Shown here: positions 8,810 to 63,800 of the stretch, piece by piece
Layout: each line of letters opens with the position of its first letter
How positions within the stretch are numbered: the stretch's first letter is position 1
Assembly: GCA_000830275.1 (NCBI GenBank)
Contig: CP010424.1
Coordinates: 622,782-686,781, forward strand
Direction: 5' to 3'
Origin: an archaeon GW2011_AR10
Lineage (GTDB): Archaea; Iainarchaeota; Iainarchaeia; Iainarchaeales; GW2011-AR10
DNA length: 64,000 bases
Notes under the pieces: generated by a model
The model's database searches: none
What the model was told of the DNA's origin: nothing
What the model saw: the letters and a program-made list of their open reading frames with translations, nothing else
Made by a program: the position numbers and the translations under genes

Positions 8810-8821
8810 GAGTGAAAGGAA

Positions 8822-23547: not shown

Positions 23548-23706
23548 TCAGTTTATGAGCGGCTGCCTTTTAACTATTTCCTGGCTCTTCTTGAACATTG
23601 GCTTAATCAAAGCAATCAGCAAAAGCGCTGCAATAATAAAAATAATGATTAGGTAAATTGAGCTCCATTCACCCTGCGCCCTTTCACCTAATTCAGGAAA
23701 TCCCAT
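23548..23706 (-). CDS. Small hydrophobic pilin-like protein (52 aa), not in the ORF track
   Basis: Hand translation: MGFPELGERAQGEWSSIYLIIIFIIAALLLIALIKPMFKKSQEIVKRQPLIN; short charged N-terminus, Gly, then one helix, like short Flp-type pilins. Confidence 0.4.
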   Translation of the reverse strand: MGFPELGERAQGEWSSIYLIIIFIIAALLLIALIKPMFKKSQEIVKRQPLIN

Positions 23707-23752
23707 ATAGAAAAAGAATGGAAAAAGAAGTATTTAATGATTGGTGTTAGGT

Positions 23753-24301: not shown

Positions 24302-24366
24302 AGCAATCGTAAATAGAAACTCTTAACCCATATTTAAAGGTTTTGCTTTAATTCGGCTATAAACAG

Positions 24367-24813: not shown

Positions 24814-24852
24814 ACTAAAAACATCTCCCAATTTTTTTTAGTGTAAAAAACA

Positions 24853-27210: not shown

Positions 27211-27224
27211 AAAATGGTTTCACT

Positions 27225-41691: not shown

Positions 41692-41783
41692 TTGGCTGGA
41701 GAAGGGAGCATCCTTAATATATTAGTTTTCACTTTTAATACTACTATATAATGCGTTGAATGCTTTGCGCGCGAGGCCTTTTC

Positions 41784-44700
41784 ATGGGGATTTCCGAGAC
41801 ATTGAGCGGATTTTACGCCAAACTGGAGGACAAGTTCTATGGCATTGCGGACTTCTTTGACAGCAAAGGCATTCCGGTTAACAGCGCGATTGACTGGGTT
41901 GAGGACAAGGGCATTCCTGCTTTTCCTCTGACAATTGCGGCAATTGTTGTTGTTGTAGCGCTGCTTTACGGTTTCGTGTTTGCTGCAACACAGCAAGTAA
42001 CTGTTGTTTTTGACCTGAAGGACAACAATGGAAACGCGTTAAGCCAGGTTAGGGTTAGCGCGGTTAATTCGGCAGGCAACAATGTTCCCTTAGGCAAAAC
42101 TTCCTTTAAGGACGGGGAAGACGTAACACTTGCTGGAGTGCCTGTTGGCGGCACAATAAAGTTTTCCTCTCAAAAGGAAGGTTACATTGATGGAAAGTTT
42201 TCACTGCAGGTTTCAGGCACTGAAAACCTTGCATTGCTGCGCATGAAAAAGGATGTGCAGACAATCGTGGGGCAAATAAGCCTTGTTGACACTGAAACAG
42301 GGGACCCTGTTGGAGAGGCACAAGTTATTGCAACCTTAAGCGACAAATCAACTGTTGAATGCAATGCCGGGGAGAGCATTGGGGCTTATGAGTGCGTTGG
42401 AGTGCTCGAGGGTGACAGCGCAAAAGTTGATGTTAGGACAAGCAACTTTGAGGACAGCTCCTTCACTGTTTCTTTCTTCGAGGGAAGCGTCAGCGAGTTT
42501 GAACTGCAGCCAAAGGCTTCCGCTGCAGAAGGAAAAAGCAGCCTAATTATCAGGGTTGTGGATTCTGCAACAGAGCAGAGAGTGCAGGGCGCTACAATCA
42601 GAATATTTGACGCTGATGATGAGGGCTTAATCAGTGAGGTAACTGACGAGGATGGGGAGTACATTGAAAGGGTTGACAAGGGGTTATCCTTAAGAGTGGT
42701 TGTTTCAAGGGACGGTTACATAAAGTATGATTCCGGCGCTGAAGGAATCGAGAGGACAATGCGGGATGACGAGGAGCTGTGGCTTGTCAGCATGGTGGAA
42801 GGCGGGGCAACTGTTACTGTTAGGGTAAGGGATGCTGGCGGAGCGCCACTAACAGGGGTTGTTGTTTCATTGTTCAACAGCGAGGCGGAACTGCTGGATG
42901 AAGAGAAAACATTGTTTGCCGGGGAAGTTGATTTTTCTGACTTGAATGCGGAAGCAACTTATTTTGTTACGGCTTTCCTTGACAGGTATGTTCCTGCAAG
43001 AGAAATCGTGAGGCCGCTGCAAAGCAAGGAACTTGACATAGAGCTGGAGCGATTAACGCAGTCAAATTCCTCCAATCTCAGGGTTTTTGTTGTTGATGAA
43101 CGTAACAGTGCGGTAAACAATGCGTTCCTTAACTTCTTTGAATTAGAGGACGGGAAGAAAACCCCTTCAGGAATACCGCAGCAGAAAAGTGATGTAACTG
43201 GAAAAGCAACTGTGCCTGTGTCAGTAAACATTTCAATGCTTGTTGAAGCGGTTAAGGGAGCGCAGCGCGGCGAAGCCGAGGTTGAAATCAAGCAGCAGGG
43301 CCTCAATGAGGCGCTTGTAACTGTTCGCAAGGAGCTTGGCCTAGTGACCTTTGCTCTGCTGGATGAAGACAAGGAACCAGTTCAGGGAGGGCATTTAACA
43401 ATTAAAAGCGGTGCAGGGGAAGAGCTGTTCAGGGCAACTCTTTCAGGGCAGAATGAAGTAACAGTTGATGTCGGGGAAAACGATTACGTGAAGATTGACT
43501 TCCTCGGCACTGACGGCAAAACACACGCGGAAGAAATTTATGTTAAGGAACAATCAAGGGTTGAAGTAATAATTGGCGGAAAGGGTTCTGCTAGTCTTTC
43601 CCCCACGCTGGAGTTTTTGGGGGTTTTCAGTGCAAGCGGTGCAGAGGTTGAGGGAATAAAGCGCGGGCAAGATTATTTCCTAAAGTTTCAGGTTGTTTTT
43701 CCTGAGGGCAAAGGAAATTATGGCATGCACGTGAGGGTTGGGGATGACTCGGTTAAGTTTGCTGACTCGCAGGATGTCGGCATAATTGGTTTGAGTGCAA
43801 CTGGTGCACAGGCTTTTTATGGAAGAACTTTCTCTCCTTTCCCGGAACCGGGCTTTGAGGGGGTTGACATGCAGAACGAGGGAAACCCGGGAGGATACAA
43901 CAAGTTTGTTGAGCTTTCCTTCACTGAAGGTGGAACAAAAATCGTCAAAGTGAGGGTTAAGGCAAAGGAAACAGCAACTGATTCAAGCTTTGATGTTAAG
44001 TTCAGGGCATGGAGTGAAGCAGGCAGAAGCTTTTATCGCGCACCAGTTGATTCAGTGCTTGAAACAGCAGCGTTTTCAAGCGAAAAAGGAACCTTGTACG
44101 CTGAAACATTGAAGGAAAGCGTGAGGATTTTCCAGACTGATTCGAGCTGCGAAGACGACTTGTGTGCTGGCTTCAAGTTCATCAGGAGCAATGACTCTGA
44201 GTTCGCGCCTGAAGACTTCAAGGCAGTGGTTGGAGAGGTTTACGCGCTTGAAGTGGAGCTTAACCCGAGCAAGGAAATTGACGCAACAATCAGGGCGGTC
44301 ACTTCGCGAAGCAACCCGAAAATTTTCTGGCAAGGATATGGAATTGACAACTTCATTGACTTTCCTGACAACAACAAGCAGGAAACCTCCATTGAAGTGA
44401 AAGGAATTACTGCAATGCCGGGGCAGGCAGTCAAGACAAGGCTTTTCTTTAAGACGGTTGAGCTGGAAACCGCTTCAATCACGCTGCAGGTTGTAACAGC
44501 AGATGATGTTTTGAACGAGTCCTTCTTTTTCGATATTTTCCTTGAAAGGGACATGGAGTTCTCAATCCAGCCTGATGAGGTAACTTTGGGAAAGGACTTC
44601 AGCATCCTGTTAAAGGAGGATACTGGAAAAGGGATTGAGAACGCAACGATTAAGCTGAAGGACAAGGACGGAAAGCACATTGAAACAATTATCGGGGATG

Positions 44701-47700
44701 GTTCCCTTGGAAAAGGGCTTGATGGAAAATACGATGTAAAAAACTCTTTTGATCCTGGAGTGATAAAATACGAAATCGCTGCTGAGGGATTCAAGCCTGT
44801 TGAGGGAGAACTTCAGGTGCTTAAAACCGGGGTGCTGAGGCTGCCGGAGGAAGTGCAGGTAAGCATTCCTGCTGGGCAGGAACAGGCAAGCGTTTCAGTA
44901 AACCTCGAAAATATTTCAGAGGAGTTAGTGCAGGACATACAGTTTGAGGTGAAGAGGCGCGGCAATTTCCCTGTTGGAATGGAGCTGAAGGCAGGCGGGG
45001 TTTCATCCATTCAGGCTAACTCAACTTACAGGGTGCCGTTTACTGCAGCTTACCATGGAATTGCCGAAAGAGAGCACGGCGAGGTTGATGTTATTGCAAG
45101 GGGCAGGGTGCTTGGCAAGTACTCTGTCAGCGCTGAAACAAGAGTGAAAATTGACTTTAACCCCGAGGTTGACCCGGCAGACATTGAGTTCAGCAAGTCA
45201 AAGTTAGTGGCTTACCTTGCAAGCGGCTACGACAACAGGCAGTTCTATGACAACAGCTATAATCAGCGTTACCCTTCAGGCTATGACAGTTCCCTGTACG
45301 GCACTGGTGGCAGCTCTCCGTATGGCACTTCCCAGTACGGCACTGGTGGCACTTCCCAGTACGGCACTGATTACTCCGGCGCAGGCTACTATGACAGCAC
45401 TTCATATCCTTACAGTTACTCCAACAACGTTTACGCGCAAAGGTACTATCCTTCTTATTTGACTGGCTATGGTTCAACTGATTACTCCAACTATAATGAC
45501 ACTCTCCCATACCGTTACCTTAATTACTCAAGCGCGCAGCAGGTTGAGTTCACTATCAGGAACAACTCTGACCTTGACTTGGTGCTGGTGCCGGATGTTG
45601 TAGCAGAGGACAAAATTGATGCTGAGGGAATACAGGTTGATGTGCCGCAGGTTACGCTGAAAAAAAAGGGCACAGCTGTCGGCGGGAGAAGAGAGGACGA
45701 GAAAGCAGTGAAGGTTTCCATAACAAACAAGCTGCTTAGGAATTATCCAAACAAGCAGTCATTCAAGTTTGACCTTGTGTTCAAATCAGATGCAGTCACT
45801 AAGTCCATTCCGCTGGAGATTTTCATTTGGAGCCCAAAGTTTGCGCTGGAAATGCAGCGCAATGTTGAGCTGTGGCTTTCACAGGAAACTCCAACGTCGA
45901 GGGCAATTGCTCAGGTTCCATTGTTTGTGAGGAACGTTGGTTTGGCGCCTGTTGAAAACATTGTGTTCAGGGCTTCGAGCGCGAGCCTTCGCGGCAATGT
46001 CAATGTCAGAGTAATTCCTGCTGTGCCTGTTCCATTCCTTGACAAGGGGCAGGCAATAACTCCGCCGCCAGCGCTTGTGGCTGAAGCAATTAGAACAGAG
46101 AAGACAACCCTGCTGGATGTGAAGCAGATTGACGTGTTTGGAACCATTGACGGAAGGCAGTACGAGTTCGGGCCAATTTTTGTGACAACCCACATTTCTA
46201 GGCCGGAGTGCTTGGTTGTTGTGCCTAACTCGCTTGAATTCCTAAGCGAAAAGGAAACAGGGGCAATAACAAAGGAATTGAAGGTTAAAAACACTTGCGC
46301 TGAAGAGGTAAGGGTTAGGCTCATTGAGCCAAGAGAGTTTGGCTCAAACAGTCTTGACTTGGCGTTTCCTGATGAAGTTGTTCCGCCGGGAAGTGATAGG
46401 CCAATTCAAATAATTTTAACCAAGAACGAGGCGTGGAATGCGCAAACACAGGTTTTTTTGCGCGGCTTCCTTGTGAGAAGCGGCAGGTTCACTTCCTCTA
46501 ACCCAATAAACGTTAACCTCAACATAGGCAAGCAGGGAGTGCAGGACAAAGTAGCTGTTGAAGAAATTTCTGTGCCGGTGTGTGGTGAGGAAGGAAAGGC
46601 AGCTGAAGAAAAGCTCGTTGCGTTTCCGAAGATTGCAACAGGCAATGACTGCAGCAACGCTTACTGTGATGCAAAACAGCTTTCAGAGTTCTTGGCTGAA
46701 AAAATCAGAAGCAGAATTGATGAAACAAAGAGGCAGGTAACCAACTACAAATCTGACTTGCTGAATGTGCCTACTTGCGAAACGCATTCATCAGGCTACT
46801 GTTCTTTTGCTGACTTGGGGCTTTCAGGGGAGAGCTTCAGCGTTTACTTCCAGAACGACATTCTTTCACCGCAGCTACTGAAGGAAGCCCTAAGCGGGAA
46901 AGGCGCGGACCTTGCTTCTTACAGAACAGACTATGCTTCAGGCTCTGATCCGGGCAGGTTTTTGGGGCAGATTGGAAAACAGGTTTTAATCAACGGAAGG
47001 ATTGAGGGGTGCGGGCGCTATAGAATGTCTGTTAACGGAGCAGTGAAAGTGCAGGGCTCGCAGCTGCAGCCTGACCTAATGGTGATACTAATTGATGTGA
47101 ACCCGGAGGGAGAAGCACTGGACAATGCAGAGGGAGCAGCAGGGGGAGCAATGACAGGAAAAGAAGTAACGGAGCAGTGCCTGCCGAAGATACAAAACAT
47201 TGCGAACTTTTTGCCGCTGGATGAAGGGTTCACTCCAGCCAACAGAAAGGACACTTTGCTTGGACTGGTTGATGTCGGCGGTGAAACACCTGAGGAAAAG
47301 CAAAAGCTTGAGGGTTTGGGAAAAGAGGTTGCAACTGGAATGTTTGGGAACGAGGCAAGGTTTGTGCAGAACGCAACCACTTCCAACAGATTGAACCTGC
47401 AGATTGGCGAAACAACTGGTTACTTGGTTAAGGTTGACATTGAGAAAACAGGGGAGGGGGCAAAGAAGACAGTGAAAGCATTCATTCAGGATGCTGGAAC
47501 TAATGCAGAAAAGCAGGGCAAGGTTGCGAAGGAGGCAGCACAAGCAATAATCGGCTTGAGGAACAACGCGATTGACGGATGCATTTCAGCAAACGATGAT
47601 TATGCTTTGCTGAAGTCAGCTGCAGAAGTTGGGGAACTTGAGATAATGGCGTGCAAGGACAGCAAGTTAAGGATTTCAGTTGGAGAGAGCTGCTGTGATA

Positions 47701-50288
47701 TAAGCGTGCTTGGCGACTTGCAGCAGGAAGTAGAAGCCGGGGCAAGCATTGACAAGGTAACCGGAATAAACCCGCCGCAGGTAAAGAAAGGCAATGCAGC
47801 GGTAACTGAAACAAAGCTTGATGCAAAAGACGAGAAAACAAACAAGTACAAATCCGAATTGCAGCTTTGCGTTACAGGATTAACTGATTTGCATAATGCT
47901 AATGGAAAGAAGGTGAAGCTTGACGCGCAGTACAAGGTTACGAAAGCAAAGGCTGCAGCAAAAGAGGTTGAATTGCAAGTATGCGGCCTGCACCCAAGCA
48001 CTCTGCTTGACGAAGTGCAAAAGCAGCCTGCCGGCACTTATTACTTTAATCCCTCGTGGAAGGGCACCCCTGAAACAATCCAGTTGAAGGAACTCATTGA
48101 AGGAGAGGTTGCTGAAGCAAACCTTGCTGAAGCAGAGAAATCCGTTGCAAGCAACAAACCAGGCGGGCAGACAAAAATTGAGGACGCGAAGAAAACCCAG
48201 AGGCTGCGGGGGCTTGGAATATATGTTGGAACATGCAGTGCGGTTGCTGCTTTGGCAGGATGGTGGACTGGATTCGGGATATTTTTGAACCCCTTAATTG
48301 ACTGCATTATTCCTGCTGCTTGGTCAGGAGCAGACGACATCGGGTTAGGCGGAGTGAAGGAATGGATTTCAGATATTTCAGGAAAGGTGTTTGGTTTCCT
48401 TGGCGGAATCACTGACAGCCTTTTCGGAAAGTTTGATGATGTTACTGAAGCATTGACAGGGCCAACAGACAACATTGAAAACTTTGACGAGTTAAAGAAC
48501 AGTGCTTTCACGACCGTAAGCACTTACTCGATTTACCGTGGTATCACAAACCCAAGCGATATCGCAACTGCATCCAATGTTAGGTCAGCTGCAAAAACAG
48601 TTTCAGAAAACCTTGCAGACCAGATAATGAAAGACAATTTCCCGCATTATCCACTCATTAGGAGCGCGAGGAGCACTGCGCTTTGGAAAAACCTTTCAGA
48701 CAAGTATTACAACGAAATTGTTAAGGGGGCTGAATCATCTTACGGAAAATCAACGCTTGATAATGCGGTGAGAAGTGCAACTGGAGCATCACATGCAGCT
48801 GTTGCAGCCGACAGTAAAGTGGTTGAAGAGTTTGTTAAGCTTAAGGGAAACCTGAAGCCTGAAGCACAAAACCTTTTGAAGGGAAATAAGGCAACTGTGC
48901 TGAATGAAGCGTTTGATTTGCAGAAATACACAGGAGCCGCTGAAGGCTCAGGAACAGTTAAGAAGTGGGATATTGGAGTTGATAGAACCACCACTCCTCC
49001 TAAATATTCTGAAAAAAGCTTTAAGAGCACCGCAGCAGGAATTGCTGACCAGCTGACTAATGACACGTGGCCGCAAATCAGGAGTGACATGGCTGAAAAG
49101 CTTGGAGCAGAGTTTGTAGGAGAAAATGAAAAAGAATTGAGGTCACTTTACAGGAGAGGCGTTGGAGCAGCAGTGAGAAACCAGCTCTCAACCCCAGTTG
49201 ACGCTGGCACAGGAAGGCTTCTGTCTTTTTCCACTGAGTTCACGCCAGCAAACGCAAGAAGCTCCGTTACCGCTGGAGTTGAAAACATTAACAAGAATTT
49301 GGCCGGCAAGGCGCTTGAATTCGTGGAAAAGAAGGCCGGCCCGAAAGTGATGCAGGAGCTTGCACAAAAAGCAGATGAAGCAATTACAAGCACTAAAGGC
49401 ACTTACAGTTTGAAATGGACTAATTTCAAGTCATATGCGAAAGGTTTCCTCAAAAATTTCGGCAAAGGAATTGCTGGAGGACTGATAGCGAATGCTGCCG
49501 GCTTGGCCGCTTACAAGGCTTACATGAACAGCGCTGGAAAAGCGGTTGAAGCTGATGAAACTTTCCAAGCGATGCAAGGAAATGCAAGTGATGATGACGG
49601 TGATGGCTTAATTGATGAAGAGGTTGCTGACGGCATTGACAATGATGGAGACGGAAAAGTGGATGAGGATGTAATAGAAATCAAGTCAGACATTACGCTG
49701 AAAAAGTACAAGCCGTACAAGGTAACAATCAGGGAGGAGTTCGGCAGGAAAACTTATACAATTGATGAAGCCGGTGAAGGCGCGGAAATTCCTGCTGACG
49801 CAAAGTTCATTGAAAAGTGCGATGCAACCCTGCAGGAAGATTTCGAGGTTGTTGGGAGCCTGCTGCCACAAGCAAACGAATTCAGTGGACAGGCCCCACA
49901 GGTTGCCAGCTACTACAAGCATTACTCTCCAATTACAAGGCATTTCTCTGATGCGTTTAATGTGCCGGAAGCGCTGCTTGTAACTGTTGCTTCATGGAAG
50001 ACAGGCATGGGAACTCAAGGAAGCGTTGAGTGGATTACGAGCTGCAATTACGGCAGCGAGGAAACAAAGTCAGTTGAAAAGAGCTTTGAGTGCGCTGCAA
50101 GAGAACTAAGCACTGCACTGAATTCTTGCAGCGGGGAAGAAAACAGCAAGGAAAAGGTAACTTGCGCTTTGCAGAAATATGATTCCGCAGGGAACAAGAG
50201 GCCAAATGAAAAAGCAGCAAACTTTGATGAACTGTTTGAACAATTCGAGCTGTGGAACAAGAGGAAATTCACAATTGAGGCAAGCTGA
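41784..50288 (+). CDS. Giant surface protein 1 (2,834 aa) with N-terminal anchor and tandem carboxypeptidase-regulatory-like domains
   Basis: Start at ATG 41784 by paralogue alignment (track ATG 41760 adds 8 aa). Conserved N-terminal motif, transmembrane helix, then beta-sandwich repeats (SLIIRVVDSATEQRVQGATIRIFDADDEGLISEVTDEDGEYIERVDKGLSLRVVVSRDGY). Y/G/S-rich region at about 45230-45520; acidic DDDGDG...DNDGDGKVDED at about 49570-49680. Confidence 0.7.
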   Translation: MGISETLSGFYAKLEDKFYGIADFFDSKGIPVNSAIDWVEDKGIPAFPLTIAAIVVVVALLYGFVFAATQQVTVVFDLKDNNGNALSQVRVSAVNSAGNNVPLGKTSFKDGEDVTLAGVPVGGTIKFSSQKEGYIDGKFSLQVSGTENLALLRMKKDVQTIVGQISLVDTETGDPVGEAQVIATLSDKSTVECNAGESIGAYECVGVLEGDSAKVDVRTSNFEDSSFTVSFFEGSVSEFELQPKASAAEGKSSLIIRVVDSATEQRVQGATIRIFDADDEGLISEVTDEDGEYIERVDKGLSLRVVVSRDGYIKYDSGAEGIERTMRDDEELWLVSMVEGGATVTVRVRDAGGAPLTGVVVSLFNSEAELLDEEKTLFAGEVDFSDLNAEATYFVTAFLDRYVPAREIVRPLQSKELDIELERLTQSNSSNLRVFVVDERNSAVNNAFLNFFELEDGKKTPSGIPQQKSDVTGKATVPVSVNISMLVEAVKGAQRGEAEVEIKQQGLNEALVTVRKELGLVTFALLDEDKEPVQGGHLTIKSGAGEELFRATLSGQNEVTVDVGENDYVKIDFLGTDGKTHAEEIYVKEQSRVEVIIGGKGSASLSPTLEFLGVFSASGAEVEGIKRGQDYFLKFQVVFPEGKGNYGMHVRVGDDSVKFADSQDVGIIGLSATGAQAFYGRTFSPFPEPGFEGVDMQNEGNPGGYNKFVELSFTEGGTKIVKVRVKAKETATDSSFDVKFRAWSEAGRSFYRAPVDSVLETAAFSSEKGTLYAETLKESVRIFQTDSSCEDDLCAGFKFIRSNDSEFAPEDFKAVVGEVYALEVELNPSKEIDATIRAVTSRSNPKIFWQGYGIDNFIDFPDNNKQETSIEVKGITAMPGQAVKTRLFFKTVELETASITLQVVTADDVLNESFFFDIFLERDMEFSIQPDEVTLGKDFSILLKEDTGKGIENATIKLKDKDGKHIETIIGDGSLGKGLDGKYDVKNSFDPGVIKYEIAAEGFKPVEGELQVLKTGVLRLPEEVQVSIPAGQEQASVSVNLENISEELVQDIQFEVKRRGNFPVGMELKAGGVSSIQANSTYRVPFTAAYHGIAEREHGEVDVIARGRVLGKYSVSAETRVKIDFNPEVDPADIEFSKSKLVAYLASGYDNRQFYDNSYNQRYPSGYDSSLYGTGGSSPYGTSQYGTGGTSQYGTDYSGAGYYDSTSYPYSYSNNVYAQRYYPSYLTGYGSTDYSNYNDTLPYRYLNYSSAQQVEFTIRNNSDLDLVLVPDVVAEDKIDAEGIQVDVPQVTLKKKGTAVGGRREDEKAVKVSITNKLLRNYPNKQSFKFDLVFKSDAVTKSIPLEIFIWSPKFALEMQRNVELWLSQETPTSRAIAQVPLFVRNVGLAPVENIVFRASSASLRGNVNVRVIPAVPVPFLDKGQAITPPPALVAEAIRTEKTTLLDVKQIDVFGTIDGRQYEFGPIFVTTHISRPECLVVVPNSLEFLSEKETGAITKELKVKNTCAEEVRVRLIEPREFGSNSLDLAFPDEVVPPGSDRPIQIILTKNEAWNAQTQVFLRGFLVRSGRFTSSNPINVNLNIGKQGVQDKVAVEEISVPVCGEEGKAAEEKLVAFPKIATGNDCSNAYCDAKQLSEFLAEKIRSRIDETKRQVTNYKSDLLNVPTCETHSSGYCSFADLGLSGESFSVYFQNDILSPQLLKEALSGKGADLASYRTDYASGSDPGRFLGQIGKQVLINGRIEGCGRYRMSVNGAVKVQGSQLQPDLMVILIDVNPEGEALDNAEGAAGGAMTGKEVTEQCLPKIQNIANFLPLDEGFTPANRKDTLLGLVDVGGETPEEKQKLEGLGKEVATGMFGNEARFVQNATTSNRLNLQIGETTGYLVKVDIEKTGEGAKKTVKAFIQDAGTNAEKQGKVAKEAAQAIIGLRNNAIDGCISANDDYALLKSAAEVGELEIMACKDSKLRISVGESCCDISVLGDLQQEVEAGASIDKVTGINPPQVKKGNAAVTETKLDAKDEKTNKYKSELQLCVTGLTDLHNANGKKVKLDAQYKVTKAKAAAKEVELQVCGLHPSTLLDEVQKQPAGTYYFNPSWKGTPETIQLKELIEGEVAEANLAEAEKSVASNKPGGQTKIEDAKKTQRLRGLGIYVGTCSAVAALAGWWTGFGIFLNPLIDCIIPAAWSGADDIGLGGVKEWISDISGKVFGFLGGITDSLFGKFDDVTEALTGPTDNIENFDELKNSAFTTVSTYSIYRGITNPSDIATASNVRSAAKTVSENLADQIMKDNFPHYPLIRSARSTALWKNLSDKYYNEIVKGAESSYGKSTLDNAVRSATGASHAAVAADSKVVEEFVKLKGNLKPEAQNLLKGNKATVLNEAFDLQKYTGAAEGSGTVKKWDIGVDRTTTPPKYSEKSFKSTAAGIADQLTNDTWPQIRSDMAEKLGAEFVGENEKELRSLYRRGVGAAVRNQLSTPVDAGTGRLLSFSTEFTPANARSSVTAGVENINKNLAGKALEFVEKKAGPKVMQELAQKADEAITSTKGTYSLKWTNFKSYAKGFLKNFGKGIAGGLIANAAGLAAYKAYMNSAGKAVEADETFQAMQGNASDDDGDGLIDEEVADGIDNDGDGKVDEDVIEIKSDITLKKYKPYKVTIREEFGRKTYTIDEAGEGAEIPADAKFIEKCDATLQEDFEVVGSLLPQANEFSGQAPQVASYYKHYSPITRHFSDAFNVPEALLVTVASWKTGMGTQGSVEWITSCNYGSEETKSVEKSFECAARELSTALNSCSGEENSKEKVTCALQKYDSAGNKRPNEKAANFDELFEQFELWNKRKFTIEAS

Positions 50289-50334: not shown

Positions 50335-51807
50335 ATGACTGGAATAAAGGGGTTCACGCTTTTCACTGCACTTGTTGCATTCATACTGATTGTTTTATCG
50401 GTGCTGCTGGTTCAGACAATGATTCGCACCGAGAGGAATACAACTGACATCATTTCAGACATTCAGGAGGAACAGGAAATGCAGGCAATAGCTGATTTGG
50501 CGAGAGCAGAGGCACTGCAAACATTCAATTACGGCATCAGGTTTTCGATTGAGGACTGGCTCACAAAAGACGGGGATGGAGACGGCATTCCTGATAATGC
50601 TTACCTTTTGACGCCAAGCGAGTTGGCTGGAACTGATGCAGAGTCATGGGAGAACACAAAGAAAAAGTTCGCTGAATCCAATTTTGGTGTTGGAGGCGAA
50701 GGAACCCAGTTTGCCAACAGGGCAGCAAACCATCTTTCAACGCTGCTTGCAAGCACGCCTGATGTAAGGGGCTTCCAAGTAAATCTTGACAACAACAGCC
50801 AGGCGGTGATTGTTAGTGTGCTGGAACCATTGTTTGAGGACAGCAGTGCAAGGCAGGACTTTTTTGAAGTGATTCGGTGTGATGGCACTTGGGATGGTTG
50901 CCCGATAGGAACTTTTTATGTTAACCTTGACATTGCAAGACTGACTGATGAGCAGTACGAGAAGCTGCCGCAGATTGTCGTGAAAAAAATCACAACAAAA
51001 GGAGAGGTGGAGAGGACTTTGAGGGAGCCGATTCTTCCAAGGGGAAATTTGCAGATTTATGTGCCGATAAGAATCTTCAAGGCAATTGCTGGGGCAAGAG
51101 ATGTTGCAAGGACAGGCAGCGGGTTTTACTCTGGAGCAATTGATGCAACTTTGTTGGAGGTAAAGTTGGGGGTTTGTGGAGAGAACACTTGCGTGCCGGA
51201 ATACCATTCTGCTTCCGGCCCTGACATTGAAGGTTTTGCCTGCGTCGGCGACACTTACGCTGACCATCCAAAAATTTCAAGCATTCCAGTTTTGATTGAC
51301 GGAACATCTTTCAACTATGATCCAAACAATGAGGAGGAAATGAGGAGCAGGCTGATTAACGAAGTTGGCAGGCCAAGGCTCCTCAACTTCTTTGCAAATG
51401 AGCTGACGCAAAACCTGCCTAATGACTTGAGTGTCCCGGCGGTTGACTTTCGGCTTGTAACAATTCCTGCGGGAAGCGGCTATGACACAATCCAGAGAAC
51501 TTCTGTTATTGTTGTAACTCCTAAGACAAGGCAGGTTGATTTCATTGGTGCGCCATCTGGAGAAGCTGTTTGCGCGAGAATTGACAGGGTTGGCGGCTTC
51601 CTTGTGTTTGAGGACACCAAGCCGGATTACATGGTGAGCGAGTTGCCAAAATATGGTTCTCTTATCCCTACTAACAGGTATGCTGTGAGGCTTTCAACTG
51701 ACTCTTTTTCTGGAGAAGTTCCTGCTGTTAAAACCTGTGAAACCATTGCAACCCCAACTGGAATAGACCTGGCAGATTTTACTTACAGATGCGAGTTCAG
51801 GGGCTGA
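50335..51807 (+). CDS. Large pilin-like protein (490 aa) with class III signal peptide
   Basis: MTGIKGFTLFTALVAFILIVLSVLLVQ: K-G then a hydrophobic helix; contains DGDGDGIPDN. Confidence 0.5.
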   Translation: MTGIKGFTLFTALVAFILIVLSVLLVQTMIRTERNTTDIISDIQEEQEMQAIADLARAEALQTFNYGIRFSIEDWLTKDGDGDGIPDNAYLLTPSELAGTDAESWENTKKKFAESNFGVGGEGTQFANRAANHLSTLLASTPDVRGFQVNLDNNSQAVIVSVLEPLFEDSSARQDFFEVIRCDGTWDGCPIGTFYVNLDIARLTDEQYEKLPQIVVKKITTKGEVERTLREPILPRGNLQIYVPIRIFKAIAGARDVARTGSGFYSGAIDATLLEVKLGVCGENTCVPEYHSASGPDIEGFACVGDTYADHPKISSIPVLIDGTSFNYDPNNEEEMRSRLINEVGRPRLLNFFANELTQNLPNDLSVPAVDFRLVTIPAGSGYDTIQRTSVIVVTPKTRQVDFIGAPSGEAVCARIDRVGGFLVFEDTKPDYMVSELPKYGSLIPTNRYAVRLSTDSFSGEVPAVKTCETIATPTGIDLADFTYRCEFRG

Positions 51808-51857: not shown

Positions 51858-51911
51858 CAACACTTTGTCAAAAAGAAAATAGGTGTTTTTATTTCACTTG
51901 ACAAAGTGTTG
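51858..51911 (+). repeat. 54-bp conserved hairpin element, copy 2
   Basis: One mismatch (loop C to T) relative to 9820-9873; arms identical. Confidence 0.6.
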
Positions 51912-51925
51912 AACCACTATATGCA

Positions 51926-51999
51926 GTCCACCAAAATTATTTGGTGGTTTTTGAGAGTTACAAATTCCACTAAAACCACCCATTAAAATAGGTGGAATT
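51926..51999 (-). other. Conserved structured intergenic element, copy 2 (reverse orientation)
   Basis: Reverse complement reads AAATTCCAC...GGGTGGTTTTAGTGGAATTTGTAACTCTCAAAAACCACC. Outer stem pairs are AAA:TTT here versus GCG:CGC in copy 1, i.e. covarying. Confidence 0.45.
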
Positions 52000-52111
52000 T
52001 GTTTGATTTTAATACTTGGCATGCAACACAGAATTGGTTTAAATAATATAGTAACTTTAATATAGATAAAACGCATTAGTTATTGGTAAAACAAAGGTTT
52101 TCCGTGGTTTC

Positions 52112-55100
52112 ATGCCTGAGGGGAAAAAGGGGCTTTACGCTTCACTTGAGGGAAAGTATTACGATTTGCTTGACTGGCTTGACACGAAGGGAATCCCTGT
52201 TTACAGTGTAGTTGACTGGATTGAGGACAAGAATATTCCTTCCTTTCCTGTTGCAGTGCTTTTCTCCTTTCTTGTGCTGATTTTGGTTGGCTGGCTTGTT
52301 TTGGGCTTGGTTGCGCCGGGCAAGGCAACGCTTTCTGTTTCGGTTTTTGATGAAAGCCTTTCTCCAGTTAGTAATGTTGAAGTGAGCGCTTCGACTGCTT
52401 CTGGGGGAACAATTGGCCCGGAGCTTACTGATGCAAGCGGTGTTGCAAGCATAACTGTGCCAATGAATGAGGAAATTCTTGTTGAAGCAAAAAAGGAGCC
52501 TGATTTCAGGACAAAAACTGAAACTTTCACTGCAATTAAGCAGGAGGAAAGCCTTGAGTTGGAGTTGCAGCGCACGGTTTCAACTTTGAGGAAAACAATT
52601 GAAATTTTGAGGCCTGGAACAAACGAGCTTGTGGACGAGCTTGTGGAGCTTGAGCTTCGATGCAGTGAAAAGCCAGAGTTCAGCGAGCGCGTAACAACCA
52701 CTACAGGCATAATTACTGTTGAAGTACAGAGCGATTGCGGAACACTTCACGTTACTCCTGCCAATGGGTTCACTGCTTCCGGCACAACAAGTTTTGATGT
52801 GAGGGTTGAGGGAACAATTGAACTGTTTTTGAGGGAAGAGGAAACAGGGAAAGGCACAATAATTGTTTCAGTTACTGACAGCTCTGGAACCCCACTGCAA
52901 GGAATTGATGTTTCGGTTGTAGTGCGGAGTGATGAATCAGAAATTGGCTCGGTTGTTGAAACAAAGCAGACTCTTGCTTCAGGCACTGTTACTTTCCTTG
53001 AGGTTCCGGAAGGAACATACTCTGTAACGGCTTTTGACAGAACAGGAACGTTCAGCGAATTTGATTCATCAGAAATTGGCTTGGTGCAGGAAGTTGCGGA
53101 TGGGGCAACCAAAACTTTTTCAATTGCATTGGAGAAAACAGTAGTGGGCTCAATAAGGGTTTTAGTGAAGGACGCTGTTTCGCTTAAGGCAATTGAGAAC
53201 GCAACTGTTTCAGTGAGCAAAGAATCAGTGAATCTCCCTCAAAAGAAAACCGATGCGGAGGGAAGAGCCGAGTTTGGTGTAGGGGAACAGGTAAAGTACA
53301 CTGTTGTTGTGGACAAGGAAGGCTACCTCATTGAAGAACTTGAACTGGAGCCTGCCAATGAGTTCAGGGAAGTTCTTTTAAGGGAGGCAACAGCTGAGAA
53401 CAGCCAGAGCCTTACAGTAATAGTGAGAGACGAGGTAGGCGACCCGATTGAAAATGTAAGAATAACTTTGAGGAACGCGGAAACTGATGCGCAGGTTGGA
53501 AGGGAGCTTGTTACTGGCATTGCAGGAATTGCGTTGTTTGAAAGAGTTGAGGCGGGAACATATTACGTGTTTGCCTTGAAGCCTGGCTTCGGGGAAAAAA
53601 CAAGCCAGACATTCACTTTGAACAGGAGGCAGGAAAACAGGGTGGAGCTAACCATTTCAATCGGTTCTGGAGCAGTTGAATTGATGGTGTTTGATGAAGC
53701 AAAGCAGCCAATGGCTGGGACAAGCGTTAAACTGCTTGACTTTTACTCGAAAGAAGTTTTAAGCGAGGGCATCACAGGCTCTGATGGAATTGCTTCTCTT
53801 GCTGCGAGAGCAGACAAAACAGTTTATGCGGTGGTAACCTTGAGCGGTTACCTGCCGTACATTACTAGAACTGTTAGGATGGGAAAGGATGTAACGCAGC
53901 AACTTGAGGCAGGCATGAGGAAGGAAATAAGTGCTCTTTCACTTGAACTGGTGAGCCTGCAGCTCGGCGAAGAAACTGTGAGAGACGTTGAGGTGCCAAG
54001 CCTTGAGCCGGGGCAAAGGTATAAGGCAAAGTTTTTGCTGCTGGTGCCTAAGGGCTCTGCTTTGGAGGAGGCTGGAGTGCATTTGAGGGTTGGCGCATCA
54101 GAGGAAGGCAAAACAAATGTGCTGGAGAAAGATGACCTGTATATTCTGGGTGTGAGTTCTGCTTTCAGTGAAATTCTGCGCGGCACTTCTTTCACTCCGC
54201 CTATTGGCTATGGCGCTGACGCGCAACATTTTACTTCAGCTGAAGCGAAGTGGGTTAATGTTTTCTTTTCACAGCCAGCAAACGGCGTGATTGAAGTTGA
54301 AGCAGAAATTCAGGTTAGGGAAAATGCAAGGCGCGGCTCAGCGCTTGACTTGTGGTATAGGGCTTGGGGGAAGACAGGAAGTTACCTTAGGTTTCCAAGC
54401 GATGCAGCTCTTGGAAGCTCTGAGAACAGTGCATCAAAGCAGGCACTGTATGCTCAGGCCAAGAACAAGAAGTTTTCTGTTGGCCCAACCAACCTTTGCT
54501 TGAACGAGTTCTGCTCAACTGTTTCAATTGAGGACTTGAGGGAAGAGCTTGAAACAAGCGTTGTGGACGAATATGTTGCGGAAATAGGCAACAATTACAG
54601 GTTAAAGTTTTCCATAAACAGTGTTTCATCAGAGCTATTCGAGCAAGCAGAGCTACAGGTGGTTGACTCAACAGGCAGCCTTGCATTTGGCAATTACGAC
54701 ATTTCAACTGTTGCCGGGGAGCGGAGAAGCGGAACTGCAACAGGCTCAGAGTTAAGGGTTGGAATAGGGAGCCTGGCAAAAGATGACTTCTTTAATGGAA
54801 CGCTTGAGTTCAGTTCAAGAAAGGAGGGAACAGCCTTAGTGCAATTAAGCGTCATTTCATCCAACCAGCGGGTTTTCGAGAAAGAGGTTAGGATCCTTGT
54901 TTTGCCGGCAGAAGAGATGAGCGTTGACATTTTGCCGAAAATAATTGTGCCATTCATTAACAACAACATTTTGGTGCAGGCTTCAACTGAGGCAGAGGAT
55001 GGGTTGCTGTTGCCTGTTCCAAATGCATCAGTTTCATTGAAGAAAGACGGCGAGGTTGTTGCCTCTGGTTTCACTGATTCAGCCGGAATTTTTCCTTACA

Positions 55101-58100
55101 CGCTGTTGAACCCGAACGCAGGCATAACTGTTGGGGTTAAGGTTGAGAAGCCTGGCTTCAGGCCGGTTGAAAAAGAAATAATCGTTACTGAGGACATTTT
55201 GGTTGCAACTCCTGCAACACTGAGGGAAACCCTTAAGGTTGGCTTGGCTCCAAGCAAAGAGCTTGCATTCGGTTTAAGCAATTTAACCCAAGTGCCCCTC
55301 ACTATTTCCAGTGTTGAGGAAAGCGCTGACTTCACTAACTTGGTGAAATTTTCATTTGATGAAACCCTTGAGGGAAGAGTAATTGGGGTTAGGGAGGACA
55401 GCAACTTAACTGTTAGGGTGAGCCTTGCTCCTGCTGGAACTATTGTTGATGAGCCTACTGCTGTGAATGGAGGGGTAAGCGTTTACGTAACGAACCCTGC
55501 ATTTAACCGCACTTGGCGCAGCGTTATTCCTGCAGAGATAAGGATTGGCTTTGGTGAGGAAATAGATGATGCAGACTGCTTCAGCATTTTTCCCAGCGAC
55601 TGGAGGATTTTCACTTCAACTGAGGCCAAATCGTTGAACGTTGATGTGAAGAACTCATGCAAGATTGGCGGAATTCCTGTTAATCTCAGGAACCTGCAGG
55701 CAAGGCTCGTAACCGGCAACCAAAACCAGGCTGGAGAATTCAGGGTTAAGAGCAACTTGGAGGGAAGCAACTCAGTAAATTTAACCGGCAGTTTCCAAAC
55801 CATTTCATTGGTTGTGCCGGAAAACTCGGAGTCAACTTTGACCTTTGATTTTAACCCTGCAAACGTCAAGAGCGCCAGCTCAGAGCTAAAGGTGGAGGTG
55901 AGGGCAATTAACCTTACGGTTAACGGGGCAGAAGAAGTGAAGCGGGCAATAAATGTGAAGGTTAGTGTGAATGACTTAGTGCAGTGCTTGGATATCCCGC
56001 AAAGGGAAGGCCTAAAGCTTTTGAGCTGCCCGTTCAATGTAGGTTATGGAAATTACCCCAACAATTTCGGCGGGGCATACGGTTATGGTGGGTATCCTTC
56101 TGGTTACTCTTACGGCCAAGGTTATGGTGGAACAAGCTATTATGGGAATCAGGCTTCAGGCTACAACCTTTATGGTGGAACAGGCTATTATGGGAACCAG
56201 GCTTCAGGCAACAACCTTTATGACCCTTCCAATACAGGCCTTGGTTATGGTAGCGGCTACAACAACTACAATCCTTACGGTTCCGGTTATGGACTTGGCG
56301 CTGGTTATGGTGGAACAACAAGCTCTTACGGTTACAGTTCCTATGACCCTTACCAAACTCAATCCGGCTACGGAAGCGGATTGCCTCCATACATTGGCAC
56401 GCTTTCACAGCTTGGCTCAACTTACCCTAACCCATCTTATTACTCCCCATCCTATGGCGGCGACTACTATGATAGAAGCGCTAACAACAGGTTTGGGTGC
56501 GGCCCTGGATTAGGCCAGGGAAAAGCAGAAATAGTGCTCAACAATTCCTGCACTGACTCGGTTGAAGTGCAGGCAAGGGATGCTGATGGTTTGATAATTA
56601 ATGAGTCAACTGTTAAGATTGAGAAAGGAAAGCAGGGAAAAATCAGTGTGCAGCCAGCCTACTTTGTTGGAAGGTATCCTGTAGAGATTTCAGCAAGGCT
56701 TGAAGGAAGCGAAGAGTCATTCACTCCGATTGATTCCGTAAACGTAATCGTGGAGAACCCTTTAACTCTTTCATACAGGGACTGCATCAGTGTTTCTCCT
56801 TCAAGGAAGCTTTCATTCAACAACTTTTTCGGAAGGCCTGTAACATTGAAAGTTATAAACAGCTGCGTGAATGAAGGAGTGCGGCTGCTTTTCAGCAACG
56901 ACACGATTTTCTTTTCAAGTGGCGCATTGAGGCAGCCAACCGACGTTAGGAGCGGATTCCACGAAATGATTGAGAACTGGGCAATACTTGATGAAAAGTT
57001 TGAGTCAGCACCAGACGGCAAAACCACTCAAATACTTGAGTTTGAAATAGTGAAAGCGCTGAAGCAGTACTGCAATCAAGCACCGCCTTTCCCAAAAGAG
57101 GGAAGCATTTTCCAGCAGGTGGGAAACTTGCGCTACTTTGCTTCTTCAGCGTACTACTCTGTTCTGGGAAGAGCAAGTTTGACTGTTAAGTTTTTCACTC
57201 CTTTTGGCAGTGAGAGCAGGATTGCTTTCCCGATGGAAATAGAGGACTTCTGGGAGGGGCTGCCTTACGGTGAAAGGCTCATAAGCTACGGTGACCCGAA
57301 TTACACTCCAGACCAATGCGTGAAGCCTGATGCATTGAATTTCAACAACACTTACAATGGGTGCATTCCTATTGGAGAGCTTGACAGGCTTGCAACGCAG
57401 CCTTTTTCAACAAAGAATAATGGAGGCTTAATGGTTGTTGCAGCGCCACAGCCAGTCAGCCAGACTTGCCAGAGCTTCCAGGCACTAGTGCAGGCCGGCG
57501 CGCCAGAGAAAGGCGGCTGCGGAACTGTTGACACAATTTCAGGGCTTTCAAGCAACAGGATTGAAAAGAACGGAATGGTGTTTTACTTTAATGCCCTCAA
57601 TAACCGCGACATTGAAATGCGCGTTGACAAGTCAGCCTGGAACGGAAAAAAGGTTGAGGTTGAGGAAACATTGTTTGTTACAGTTAACAGGGTGGTGCCT
57701 TCAAGCAGCAAGCGGGTTGCTGTGCCGGTCAAGCTGTGCGTTGAAGGCGGAGCTAATATTGGGCAGGAAGAGCAGAGCATAATTGACAAACTTGATGACA
57801 AGTACGGCGAAAACAGGTGGAAGGAACTCGGCGAGTCCGACTTGAATAAGGCAATAAAGGAGGCCAAACCCAATGCAACCAATGAAGAAATCAAAAAAAT
57901 AACGGATTTGGCTAATGAAACCCCAACAACAGGAGAGGCTTTTGTGTGCGAGGCGGGAAAGAGTGGCAGCGCTGTTTACAAGGAGCTTGGCTTTGACAAG
58001 CTGTTGTTTGATTGGCGCTATGACAGCATTGGCATGCAGGCGTGCGATGCAGGTAATGCAGTAGCCTATTACTGTGATGCAACACAGCTGTCAGTGGAGT

Positions 58101-60181: not shown

Positions 60182-60667
60182 TTGAGGCTTCAGTTTATGA
60201 ATGAGAACCAATTGATTTATGTGCCGTTGAATTTTATCATGTTTCTTGTGGGCCTCGCGGTTGGCTTCTTTCTGGAATTGAACATCGCGCCTTTCACTTT
60301 TGGCATTCACCCCGCTGTTGACGCAGTTGTTTTAACTTTCGGGGTTTTCGTGCTCTCAATTGTTTTCTATGGTTACCTTAACCCTGTTATTTTCCTTTAT
60401 ATTGGCCTGCTTCACTCAGGCCTGGTTTCAGGGAACCCTATTGGAGTGGTAATGCTCTTGCTTCCATTGCTTGTTGCATCTTATGGGGGTGGAATGACTG
60501 CAGGCTATTTGGCGGTTGACCTGCACGAGGAAGGCAACCTGTTCGAGCACAAAATCCAGATAGCGGCTTTTTTCTTTGGGGCGCTGTTTTTGGCGCTTGT
60601 AATAGGGCTGCTTTACGGTTTTCTCCCCAACCTGGAGGAACTTGACAGCCTGATTTTTTATGATTAA
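60182..60667 (+). CDS. Hypothetical polytopic membrane protein
   Basis: 161 aa with about four to five helices. Confidence 0.45.
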   Translation: MRLQFMNENQLIYVPLNFIMFLVGLAVGFFLELNIAPFTFGIHPAVDAVVLTFGVFVLSIVFYGYLNPVIFLYIGLLHSGLVSGNPIGVVMLLLPLLVASYGGGMTAGYLAVDLHEEGNLFEHKIQIAAFFFGALFLALVIGLLYGFLPNLEELDSLIFYD

Positions 60668-60875: not shown

Positions 60876-63800
60876 ATGGGTGTCCTAGATTCATTGAAAA
60901 ACATTTATTTTGGCCTCGAGGAAAAGTACTATTCTCTGCTGGACAAAATCGATGAAAGGATCCCAATTTACAAGATAATCGACCCAATTGACAAGATTGT
61001 GCCGAGTTTTGCACTGGTTTTAATCATCGGTTTCTTGCTCCTTGTTTTGGCACTATGGTGGCTTGCAGGAATACTGCTGCCGCCGACAACCTCAACCCTG
61101 ACAATTGTTGTGGTGGAAGAGGATAAAACTCCAATAGAAAATGCTGCCGTAACTTTTTCGGTTGGCGGTGAGGAAGAAAGCAGGGAGCGCACAAACGAAA
61201 ACGGTGAAGCAAAGCTTGAGGGCATTGAAAAGGGAACAGAGGTGTTCGTTGAAGCCGAGAAAGAAGGCTATCAGACAAGGACAAGGAGCGTGTTCGTTTC
61301 AGAGGTTCCAAGCCAGGTTGAAGAAATCGTTTTGGAGCTGGAGGAAGCTGCATTTGAAACAAAAACAATCAGGCTTGTTGATTCTCTTGGGCAAGGCGTT
61401 CCGGCTGAGTTCACGCTTACTTTCAGCTGCAGTGACCCTTTTGCAACTCCGCCTTCACCGGTAAACCTGCTTAGAAGCGATTTTGGGGTTGCAAGGGTTC
61501 AGGTGCCAAGCAACTGCGGAACACTGCGCGTTTCAGTAATTGATGATGCAGGCTATGAAAACATAACAAGCATTGAGGTCATTGGGAATGACTTCAGGAT
61601 TGAGTTAAGTGAAGCAGTAAAGCCTGAAGGCACAATCGCGGTAAACCTGCTGGATGAAGACGGAAATCCAATTGAGGACTCAGTTGAAGTGCAGTTGTAC
61701 CGCTACGATGACCTGGTTCAGAACCCGGAAATAGGGCCAATTGATTTTGGTTACAGTTCCGGCGGGCAAGCAACATTTGTTGCAACTGTGGGACAGTACG
61801 TGGTGAAGACGTTTGACTCTTCCGGAGTTTATGGGGATGAAACTTCCGCCAGGATAACGCTTTCAGCTGATGAAACCAAGACAGTTAACATCACTTTAAC
61901 TGCGAATGTCATTGGGAGCATTAAGATTCAGGTAATTGATTCTGCTTCAAGGCAGCCGGTTGACAATGCAAAGGTAACATTAAAGTATCAGAGCGATGAA
62001 AGGCAGGTGGCGCAGCTCACAACTGACTCGGATGATGACGCAATAGTTGAGTTCTCCATTTCCAGGGACGTGGAATACAGGGTTTTGGTTGAAGCAGAAG
62101 CCTACCAGCTTGGAAAAAGGGAGAGCCTTGAAATAAGCAGTGCTGTTGTAGTGGTTGAGCTCAACAAGTGCACTCCAACAACTTGCGGAAAGCTTTTAGT
62201 GAAGGTGCTAGACCAAGACGGGGAACCAGTGGAAAATGCTGCTGTTTCATTGTACAATGCTTCAACCAATTACCTGGCTGGCTACAGCAACAAGGTGTCT
62301 GATCTCAATGGAGTTGCAGAGTTTACTGGAGTCAGCTCCGGAAACTACTTTGCGTTTGCGTTCAAGGAAACAATTTCAGGGAGAAGCGACACAACATATT
62401 TCAGCAGTACAAGCAATGACGATGAAGACGTTGACTTGACTGTTTCAATGGAGATTCCAAACGGGATTGTGAGGGCGCTTATTGTTGACAAGGAAGGAAG
62501 AGGAATTGCTTTTCCAATTGTTACTGTGTTTGATGCGCGCACAAACGAGGTCATTGGCTCAAGGCAGGGGGAAGCGGATGGCACCTTCGAGCTTGAAACA
62601 AAGGCTGACAAAAGGGTTTACCTGCGCGTTAGGCAGAAGGACTCAAAGCCAAGGATGGCAGACTACTTCACTGTAGCGAGGCCTGTTGTGCCGTCAACCA
62701 TTCAGGAGTTCACAATAGTAATGGAGCCGGAAATAATTGACAAGGACATCGAGGCAGAGTTTTTGGGTTTGTTCCAAGCAGGGGAAAGGGCAAAGACTCT
62801 TTCAAAAGGAGAACAGTACACGGCAAGATTCAGGTTGCGCGTGCCAGAGGAAAAGGATTACTCTGAAACAGGAATGCACATCAGGGTTGGAAAAGAACTC
62901 ATAATGGAAAAAGACCCCATTGTGTTGAAGGAAATAAACGCTCCAGCAGCATCAATCATCAAGGCAACAAAGTTTGACCCTGACTCAGGATTAAGCGAAC
63001 AGCAATATGCTTTGACGAATGATGACGCAAAATGGTCCAACATTGTTTGGAGCAATGAGCCGGCTGCAGGAATATATGAGGTTGAATCGGTTGTGGAAAT
63101 AAAGGAAACCGCCTCAATTCGCGATGAGCTGGAAGTGCATTGGCGGGGCTGGGCTGAAAACGGAATCAGGGAAAGAAATCCTGAGGATGACTCTGTTTCA
63201 ATTGAGCTTTACTCTAATACCCACACGCAGGTGTTTGAGGTTGGCGTAACCACTTTGTGCAGTGAGGACTTCTGTTTCAGCGCAAGGATAAGGGACCAGG
63301 AAGCAGGCCTAACCGAATCTGTTTCTGATGCGTACACTGCAAGGATTGGGAACACTTACGAATTTAGGTTCATTATTACAAACAACAACCCTTCAAGGAT
63401 TCACGACAACGCGGATCTTAGAATCAACAACGTTGACCAGGCAGTCAGGTTTTTGGAGTACAGCATGGTGAACGCGCAAACAGGAGAACTGCAAGGCGTA
63501 GTCAATGGTTCAGAATTTCCAAGGCTGAACGTTGGCAATTTGAGCCCAAACCAGGACATTGTTCTGACAACAGAGTTCGTAACATTGAAGCCAATCACAG
63601 GCATCATAAGCATCAGGCTTGTATCTGATGAGGCAATTGTTTTCGAGAAAAACCTTACAATCCAGATTTCTGCGCCGAAGGAAATGACTGTAACTGTTCT
63701 ACCGCAGCGCTATGCTTCCGGCATAGAAACAGACATTAATGTGCTGGTCAAGGACAAGGAAACAAGGCTTGAGCTGGAGGAAGCTGTTGTAAGGCTCAAA

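Follow-up and report, generated by a model that had tools for sequence, protein, structure and literature searches.

A protein with a prepilin-like N-terminus is encoded, in one phylum of DPANN archaea, at a fixed place between genes for giant surface proteins. The representative described here comes from archaeon GW2011_AR10 (Iainarchaeota, formerly Diapherotrites) and lies in a stretch of 64,000 nucleotides (nt) of its genome (GenBank assembly GCA_000830275.1, contig CP010424.1, positions 622,782 to 686,781 of the forward strand), which is called the window throughout and whose numbering is used for all coordinates. The open reading frame (ORF) occupies 50335 to 51807 on the + strand, opens with the first start codon past an in-frame stop and encodes a protein of 490 amino acids (aa) that begins MTGIKGFTLFTALVAF; it is a real, translated gene. 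With a probability of about 0.55, we regard its product as a modular pilin-like minor subunit or adaptor that is specific to Iainarchaeota and works with the giant surface proteins, which it probably helps to anchor or display. The observations behind this reading are a class III-type motif found throughout the family, pilin-like matches to a confident structure model, an invariant gene order with the giant genes and recurrent adjacency to type IV pilus genes. An original prediction, made from the sequence of the window alone, had described the protein as an oversized class III signal-peptide protein between two giant genes. Its N-terminus, MTGIKGFTLFTALVAFILIVLSVLLVQ, agrees letter for letter with that description, and ORFs of 2842 aa (46 nt upstream) and 2669 aa (304 nt downstream) do flank the gene.

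The N-terminal signal

Archaeal class III signals are processed in front of the hydrophobic domain, with a charged residue at position -2 and Gly or Ala at -1, and do not require Glu at position +5 (PMC4371748; PMC3387779); Glu5 is likewise not a requirement for archaeal pilins (PMC4371748). Judged by the layout taken from these papers (a charged residue at -2, Gly or Ala at -1, then directly a hydrophobic domain of about 20 residues), the short leader MTGIK-G followed by FTLFTALVAFILIVLSVLLV has the make-up of a class III signal. An archaeal prepilin peptidase would be expected to cleave it after Gly6.

The same layout defines the whole family. Most of the 150 members collected with a complete N-terminus have a leader of 5 residues; position -2 is Lys or Arg in 141 of the 150, and position -1 is Gly in 110 and Ala in 40. 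The start of the helix is nearly invariant: Phe at +1, Leu at +3, Phe at +4, Ala at +6 and Leu at +7 are present in 150 of 150, position +2 is Thr (99) or Asn (50), and position +5 is Thr (147) or Ser (3) and never Glu. Across eight genes, each of the invariant residues between +1 and +7 is encoded by two to five different codons. Therefore, the helix is translated and is under purifying selection as protein. The prepilin-like arrangement of the original prediction (K-G, then a hydrophobic helix) is thus borne out, and a true start on the 3' side of the helix, which the prediction had named as the finding that would overturn it, is excluded: the codon-level conservation of +1 to +7 leaves no room for a start at Met29. 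The N-terminal part of the NCBIfam ComGF minor-pilin model matches residues 4 to 45 weakly, in 65 of 83 members (best E-value 3.5e-5), far below its curated cutoff.

A subclade of the family (P0155, P0162, P0174, P0179, P0181, P0188, P0191 and P0192) has Met at position +3 (GFNMFSA). Several of its database entries start at this Met and so have no leader; these are probably gene-calling errors that mask the class III signal.

Predicted fold and modular layout

An AlphaFold2 model built on an alignment of 83 sequences is confident (predicted local distance difference test, pLDDT, 89.1; predicted template modelling score, pTM, 0.83). It consists of a single helix over residues 8 to 77 with pLDDT above 90, an α/β region to about residue 260, a Cys-rich loop, a helix at residues 333 to 360 and a β-rich C-terminal domain. 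As modelled, the protein would have a type IV pilin fold, in which the C-terminal half of a long N-terminal helix lies on an antiparallel β-sheet. In a structural comparison, the model matched PilV of Neisseria meningitidis (score 6.9), GspI (6.6), a Shewanella pilin (6.3), PilX (6.1), XcpV (5.9), ComP (5.9), PilE of Pseudomonas aeruginosa (5.8), EpsI (5.6), GspK (5.4) and the modular pilin PilB of Streptococcus sanguinis (4.5). The scores are modest and each match spans 70 to 100 aligned residues; seven of the eight best-ranked matches are pilins. Foldseek returned no match to the PDB or to viral structures.

Conservation is concentrated in residues 1 to 260, where C182 and C189 are invariant. 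The 230 residues that follow form a variable module, probably rich in disulfides, that is partly absent from members of 340 to 400 aa. The protein has the make-up of a modular pilin, in which a further structural module is added behind or within a pilin module. No domain or fold match was found for the C-terminal module in Pfam, in a PDB profile search or with Foldseek, and the extra modules of CofB, ComZ and GspK likewise match no domain signature (PMC8179133). Six further cysteines bring the total to eight, which would fit an extracellular protein, and the sequence ends in DFTYRCEFRG with no C-terminal hydrophobic segment. The original prediction had stressed that the protein is far longer than structural pilins. 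It is indeed longer, but this is not anomalous, since large modular minor pilins (S. sanguinis PilB and PilC, CofB, TcpB, ComZ and GspK) and large archaeal proteins with class III signals are known (PMC8179133; PMC3387779; PMC4858521).

A family found almost only in Iainarchaeota

A word-indexed search gave 83 homologs of the 490-aa protein. A profile search of 1.84 billion representative proteins extended the family to 250 clusters at 50% identity (E ≤ 0.001), 225 of them at E ≤ 1e-10. Among the 150 clusters listed, members are about 170 to 790 aa long and mostly match over nearly their full length, the shortest resembling fragments, and no tail of ordinary pilins follows them. Genome matches carry the label Candidatus Iainarchaeum, phylum Iainarchaeota. 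In a scan of one genome per species at least 100 family loci were found, and the 80 that were retained are nearly all labelled Iainarchaeum, Diapherotrites or plain archaeon. The exceptions are two that carry the label Micrarchaeota and two that carry Chloroflexota/Chloroflexi, the latter pair probably through binning errors. Neither the 490-aa protein nor any of the 83 members matches a Pfam family, and a sequence profile search of the PDB with the 490-aa protein gave no match. One member bears the automatic name "Tfp pilus assembly protein PilV" in the database of the Joint Genome Institute (JGI).

At one locus (L001, 8330 to 9991), a paralog in tandem, 553 aa long and with KKGFTLFTALV at its N-terminus, stands directly before the ortholog; locus L002 holds the same genes in a second assembly, so that the two represent one lineage. 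This arrangement suggests that two such pilin-like subunits can work together. A third locus with two family hits (L013) looks like a split gene.

Large modular proteins with a class III signal are already known as a kind. In the literature open to searching, no description of the cluster of giant and pilin-like genes in Diapherotrites or Iainarchaeota was found, and the same holds for the family itself, its confinement to a single DPANN phylum, the invariance of its FTLFTAL helix and its constant position between giants.

Conserved order with the giant genes

The proteins of the window were compared with all ORFs of 87 related loci. Homologs of the first, second and third giant (giant1, giant2 and giant3) were found in 84, 80 and 74 of these, respectively, and the order giant1, pilin-like gene, giant2, giant3 holds at every locus with enough sequence. 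The gene order is invariant, and the association with giant genes that the original prediction had seen in one genome is now seen in about 80 genomes at species level. When the flanking giants were strictly required to lie no more than 1.5 kb away on either side, 44 of 52 loci qualified; the remainder are interrupted by small insertions, toxin-antitoxin pairs among them. In at least 11 loci, blastp places a small membrane-protein gene in the interval from giant2 to giant3, and further loci have a gene of comparable size there.

The three giants share a start of about 50 aa with the motif YxxLExKYYxLxDxLDxKGIPVYxxxDWIEDKxIPSFP, which has no counterpart in Pfam and is followed by a single transmembrane (TM) helix. 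The motif may serve all three as a cytoplasmic domain for docking or targeting. In mid-protein, giant1 (about aa 1290 to 1400) and giant2 (about aa 1500 to 1650) carry low-complexity stretches rich in Tyr, Gly and Ser (for example, YGTGGSSPYGTSQYGTGGTSQYGTDYSGAGYY) that look like disordered or elastic linkers. Near its C-terminus, giant1 also has a hydrophobic segment and an Asp-rich repeat (about 49400 to 50288) that looks calcium-binding.

Some orthologs of giant1 carry lytic modules. The ortholog in locus L006 (1790 to 9985) has an SLT lytic transglycosylase domain, and that in L036 (1609 to 9951) has a 137-aa segment resembling a 1016-aa secreted protein of the window (E about 1e-31). The latter protein, encoded at 32926 to 35976, combines Amidase_3 and PKD domains with a weak, below-cutoff glucosaminidase match; such domains belong to peptidoglycan hydrolases, and the archaeon itself lacks murein. 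The giant1 of the window shows neither an SLT domain, which was sought at its C-terminus and not detected, nor a segment like the Amidase_3/PKD protein. Bacterial cell walls may be the target of the lytic modules.

Neighbouring pilus and archaeosortase-like genes

A type IV pilus-like locus on the - strand comprises pilin-like genes and the genes for a T2SSF platform protein and a T2SSE ATPase. Some 21 kb separate its end from the pilin-like gene, and it points away from the cluster, which starts at 29760. Elsewhere, T2SSE ATPase homologs stand divergently beside the archaeosortase-like or giant1 genes in five loci, and homologs of the platform protein, the pilins or both do so in two more. 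The resulting count of at least seven loci is a lower bound, as most loci end before that region. The adjacency of the ATPase/platform locus to the cluster is recurrent.

The cluster also includes a gene for an archaeosortase/exosortase-like membrane protein; in 20 loci, a homolog is encoded close upstream of giant1. No C-terminal sorting signal (such as PGF, a TM helix and a basic tail) was found in the pilin-like protein, giant1 or giant2, and these three were therefore rejected as substrates of the archaeosortase-like enzyme. In the window, the archaeosortase-like gene is preceded by a gene for a 411-aa protein with 10 TM helices (the pair spans 29760 to 31586), for which blastp gave no homolog in the related loci.

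Transcription signals

The 46-nt gap upstream of the pilin-like gene contains a TATA-like box whose centre lies about 32 nt before the ATG. For a leaderless mRNA, an archaeal TATA box would be expected at this distance. Across the family, 8-mers made up only of A and T with a TA step peak at -26 to -35 from the ATG (36 of 74 loci, against about 5 in background bins). Together, these patterns suggest that the box acts as a promoter of the gene's own, giving an mRNA that is leaderless or has a short leader. Downstream, the 304-nt spacer before giant2 (51808 to 52111) is densely filled with inverted repeats, among them a perfect 14-base-pair (bp) stem (51858 to 51871 with 51898 to 51911), a pair of 25-nt arms (51927 to 51951 and 51972 to 51996) and an 8-bp hairpin (51928 to 51947) that, followed by TTTTT, resembles a terminator. 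The spacer could be a terminator, an attenuator or a small RNA; Rfam recognised no family in it at gathering score. Because of the TATA-like box and the downstream stem-loops with their T5 hairpin, the gene probably has its own transcription unit.

Proposed role and alternatives

In the reading that we prefer, the pilin-like protein would be inserted by Sec, and an archaeal prepilin peptidase would cut it behind Gly6. A minor subunit of low abundance, it would then either cap a short filament raised by the neighbouring ATPase and platform or stay in the membrane on its helix, and in both places it would dock or present the three co-located, membrane-anchored giants of 2,400 to 2,900 aa. In some species, the giants would bring cell-wall-lytic modules with them, as sequence similarity in two orthologs indicates. 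By analogy with bacterial modular pilins, a tip or adaptor role is plausible.

Several results weigh against this reading. The gene appears to have its own promoter and terminator-like elements, so that co-transcription with the giants is not supported; the co-expression anticipated in the original prediction is suggested by the conserved adjacency only. The Pfam N_methyl signature (IPR012902) is found in none of the 83 members, and the family does not show the bacterial type IV pilin signature, which joins N_methyl to Glu at +5. No prepilin peptidase was found: Pfam gave no A24 hit among the multi-TM ORFs of the window, and neither the window nor the 87 related loci showed a membrane ORF with GxGD[VIL]K. 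The motif [KR][GA]|FTLFT differs from the [KR]G|Q of the pilins in the adjacent operon, and homology between the two was rejected, as hhalign aligned only 14 columns with a probability of 7%. A small cognate pilin with the same N-terminus was likewise sought and rejected, since none lies within 10 kb in any of the 87 loci. Because the leader and the N-terminal part of the first helix (α1-N) differ and the hhalign probability is 7%, the sequence does not imply co-assembly with the [KR]G|Q pilins. That the protein is processed by the same peptidase as the pilus operon and forms the tip of that pilus, as the original prediction proposed, is conjecture.

The missing cognate pilin and the motif unlike that of the neighbouring operon would be just as expected of a scaffold that belongs to no filament, in which the helix, cleaved or not, holds the protein in the membrane, where it organises or stabilises the giants, much as in the bindosome of Sulfolobus, whose sugar-binding proteins carry class III signals. 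The single N-terminal TM helix of each giant could pack against the pilin helix, and large non-pilus proteins with class III signals do occur in archaea (PMC3387779). We take such a scaffold to be possible, if on the unlikely side: the near-invariance of positions -2 to +7 exceeds what a plain anchor needs and points to recognition by a peptidase or a platform, and the pilin-like fold, together with the recurrent adjacency to a T2SSE ATPase, suggests an assembly machine. If the machine were one for secretion, the protein could be a pseudopilus subunit that forms, with T2SSE and T2SSF, a short piston extruding or unfolding the giants or their lytic domains. Matches to the pseudopilins GspI, XcpV, EpsI and GspK of the type II secretion system (T2SS), the consistent absence of Glu at +5, the adjacent genes for a pilus-type ATPase and platform and the lytic modules of some giant1 orthologs all agree with this idea. 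It is nevertheless quite improbable, being drawn by analogy alone: the giants, with their N-terminal signal-anchor helices and in a cell with one membrane, require no second secretion step, and neither GspI- or GspJ-like partners nor other secretion components were identified near the gene.

The absence of any Pfam or PDB sequence match and the lack of a Foldseek match would also suit an ordinary type II (signal-anchor) surface protein, for instance a lineage-specific adhesin or an accessory of the surface layer (S-layer), whose likeness to a prepilin is coincidental and which has no part in type IV filament biology. Coincidence is very unlikely, however, to have kept a [KR][GA]|F boundary before the helix in 141 to 150 of 150 members with a very short leader, and 65 of 83 members match the minor-pilin N-terminal model. 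The modular pilin-like subunit or adaptor can also be extended into a larger proposal, in which it is the pilin-type keystone of an undescribed surface apparatus of Iainarchaeota: a type IV pilus-like motor would raise a short filament with this protein as its cap, and the cap would bear or deploy the three giants (about 2,500 to 2,900 aa, some with peptidoglycan-lytic modules), which would grip and breach bacterial cells. We regard this extension as speculative and doubtful.

Comparison with known systems

GspK/XcpX, the tip pseudopilin of the T2SS, combines a pilin fold with extra α-helical elements and, like the present family, has no Glu at +5; by analogy, the absence of Glu5 fits a tip position. 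The 490-aa protein has no sequence similarity to GspK/XcpX, however, carries a different extra module and belongs to an organism without an outer membrane. Whereas GspK acts in a GspI-GspJ-GspK tip complex encoded in a T2SS operon, the neighbours here are giants, with no related small pilin-like genes.

Modular pilins, in which a module is grafted onto a pilin module, are widespread in bacteria and are probably located at the tip (Raynaud et al., 2021; PMC8179133). Examples such as S. sanguinis PilB and PilC, CofB of enterotoxigenic Escherichia coli (ETEC), Vibrio cholerae TcpB and Thermus ComZ share with the 490-aa protein a class III-type signal, a pilin-like core, a bulky module and a size of roughly 400 to 550 aa; low abundance and a probable place at the tip as adaptor or adhesin would be expected of it as well. 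In contrast to them, the present family is archaeal and confined to one DPANN phylum, has neither IPR012902/N_methyl nor Glu5, has a C-terminal module that matches no known domain and is encoded between giants rather than inside a pilus operon.

Among archaeal class III proteins that are not small pilins, the Sulfolobus bindosome and the large putative minor pilins or adhesins of type IV pilus loci show the same charged -2 residue, Gly or Ala at -1 and large size, and presumably the same dependence on a peptidase of the PibD/FlaK type (PMC3387779; PMC4858521; PMC4371748). The 490-aa family differs from them in its invariant FTLFTAL α1-N, its genomic context and the lack of a substrate-binding-protein or DUF2341 domain; the solute-binding-protein fold that accompanies the class III signal in the Sulfolobus-type bindosome is not found in the 490-aa protein.

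The giants themselves resemble the SPEARE proteins of Nanohaloarchaeota (Hamm et al., 2019; PMC6642349), which are likewise very long, membrane-anchored, rich in adhesion domains and encoded in small DPANN genomes. Unlike these, the giants show no protease or restriction-endonuclease domain in a Pfam scan. No description places SPEARE genes on either side of a pilin-like gene, and the 490-aa protein is a partner of giants rather than a giant. Pilus-like PilB, PilC and pilin genes have been noted in DPANN archaea, including Diapherotrites (PMC6642349).

Significance

Little is known of how DPANN archaea attach to other cells. The module described here is phylum-wide and strictly ordered (archaeosortase-like gene, giant1, pilin-like gene, giant2, small membrane protein, giant3) and often lies by a type IV pilus motor. 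Its only small and confidently modelled component is the modular pilin-like protein, which offers a tractable handle beside giants of about 300 kDa (estimated from length). Earlier genome analyses had considered Iainarchaeota possibly capable of autonomous growth. The lytic modules on some giant1 orthologs hint at a bacterial target and so bear on whether these archaea are free-living or host-dependent; were the keystone proposal true, Iainarchaeota would be attackers or episymbionts of bacteria. Should the 490-aa protein prove to be one more minor pilin or adhesin, the advance would be incremental.

Other features of the window

The coordinates of the features are collected in Table 1.

Table 1. 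Features of the window around the pilin-like gene
Feature	Coordinates	Strand	Description
Pilin-like gene	50335..51807	+	490 aa; 100% identical to hypothetical protein QT03_C0001G0743 of archaeon GW2011_AR10 (1.24-Mb contig)
Leader peptide MTGIKG	50335..50352	+	Predicted prepilin-peptidase site after G6; K at -2, G at -1; putative cleavage
Residues 7-77	50353..50565	+	Invariant FTLFTALV start, hydrophobic α1-N and amphipathic continuation; modelled as one 70-residue helix
Residues 78-260	50566..51114	+	Conserved globular α/β part of the core; invariant C182/C189, GTFYVNLD, YExxPQI, PILPRGxxxIYVPxRxFKA
Residues 261-490	51115..51804	+	Variable C-terminal module: Cys-rich loop, helix 333-360, β-rich domain (block conservation, AlphaFold2)
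TATA-like box TTAAATATATTAA	50297..50309	+	In the 46-nt gap upstream of the pilin-like gene; putative promoter element
Stem-loop cluster	51858..52002	+	In the 304-nt spacer; inverted repeats, terminator-like site, RNA fold z = -2.76
Giant gene 1	41760..50288	+	2842 aa; N-terminal cytoplasmic motif, one TM helix, CarboxypepD_reg/Ig-like repeats (Pfam)
Giant gene 2	52112..60121	+	2669 aa; same N-terminal motif and TM helix, several CarboxypepD_reg/Big_1/MG3-like domains
Small membrane protein gene	60182..60667	+	161 aa; five predicted TM helices, no family match
Giant gene 3	60876..64000	+	More than 1041 aa inside the window, runs off its end; same N-terminal motif and TM helix
Type IV pilus-like locus	20589..29504	-	T2SSE ATPase 27225..29504, T2SSF platform 24853..27210, at least four [KR]G|Q pilin-like genes (Pfam, translations)
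Archaeosortase/exosortase-like gene	31029..31586	+	185-aa membrane protein; TIGR04178 39.7 bits (cutoff 23), weak Pfam Exosortase_EpsH

A second type IV pilus-like locus, at 3738 to 9736, has genes for two TadC-like T2SSF proteins and for a 445-aa T2SSE ATPase. The gene in front of this locus encodes a 646-aa protein with a weak DUF11 match, a class III-like N-terminus (QKKG|IILAMVAVIV) and a C-terminal TM helix, a weak homolog of which is encoded upstream of giant1 in L028. Toxin-antitoxin pairs at the border of giant1 differ from genome to genome: ParE-like in the window (40744 to 41204), HEPN/nucleotidyltransferase in L006 (1025 to 1671) and PemK in L007 (9238 to 9788).

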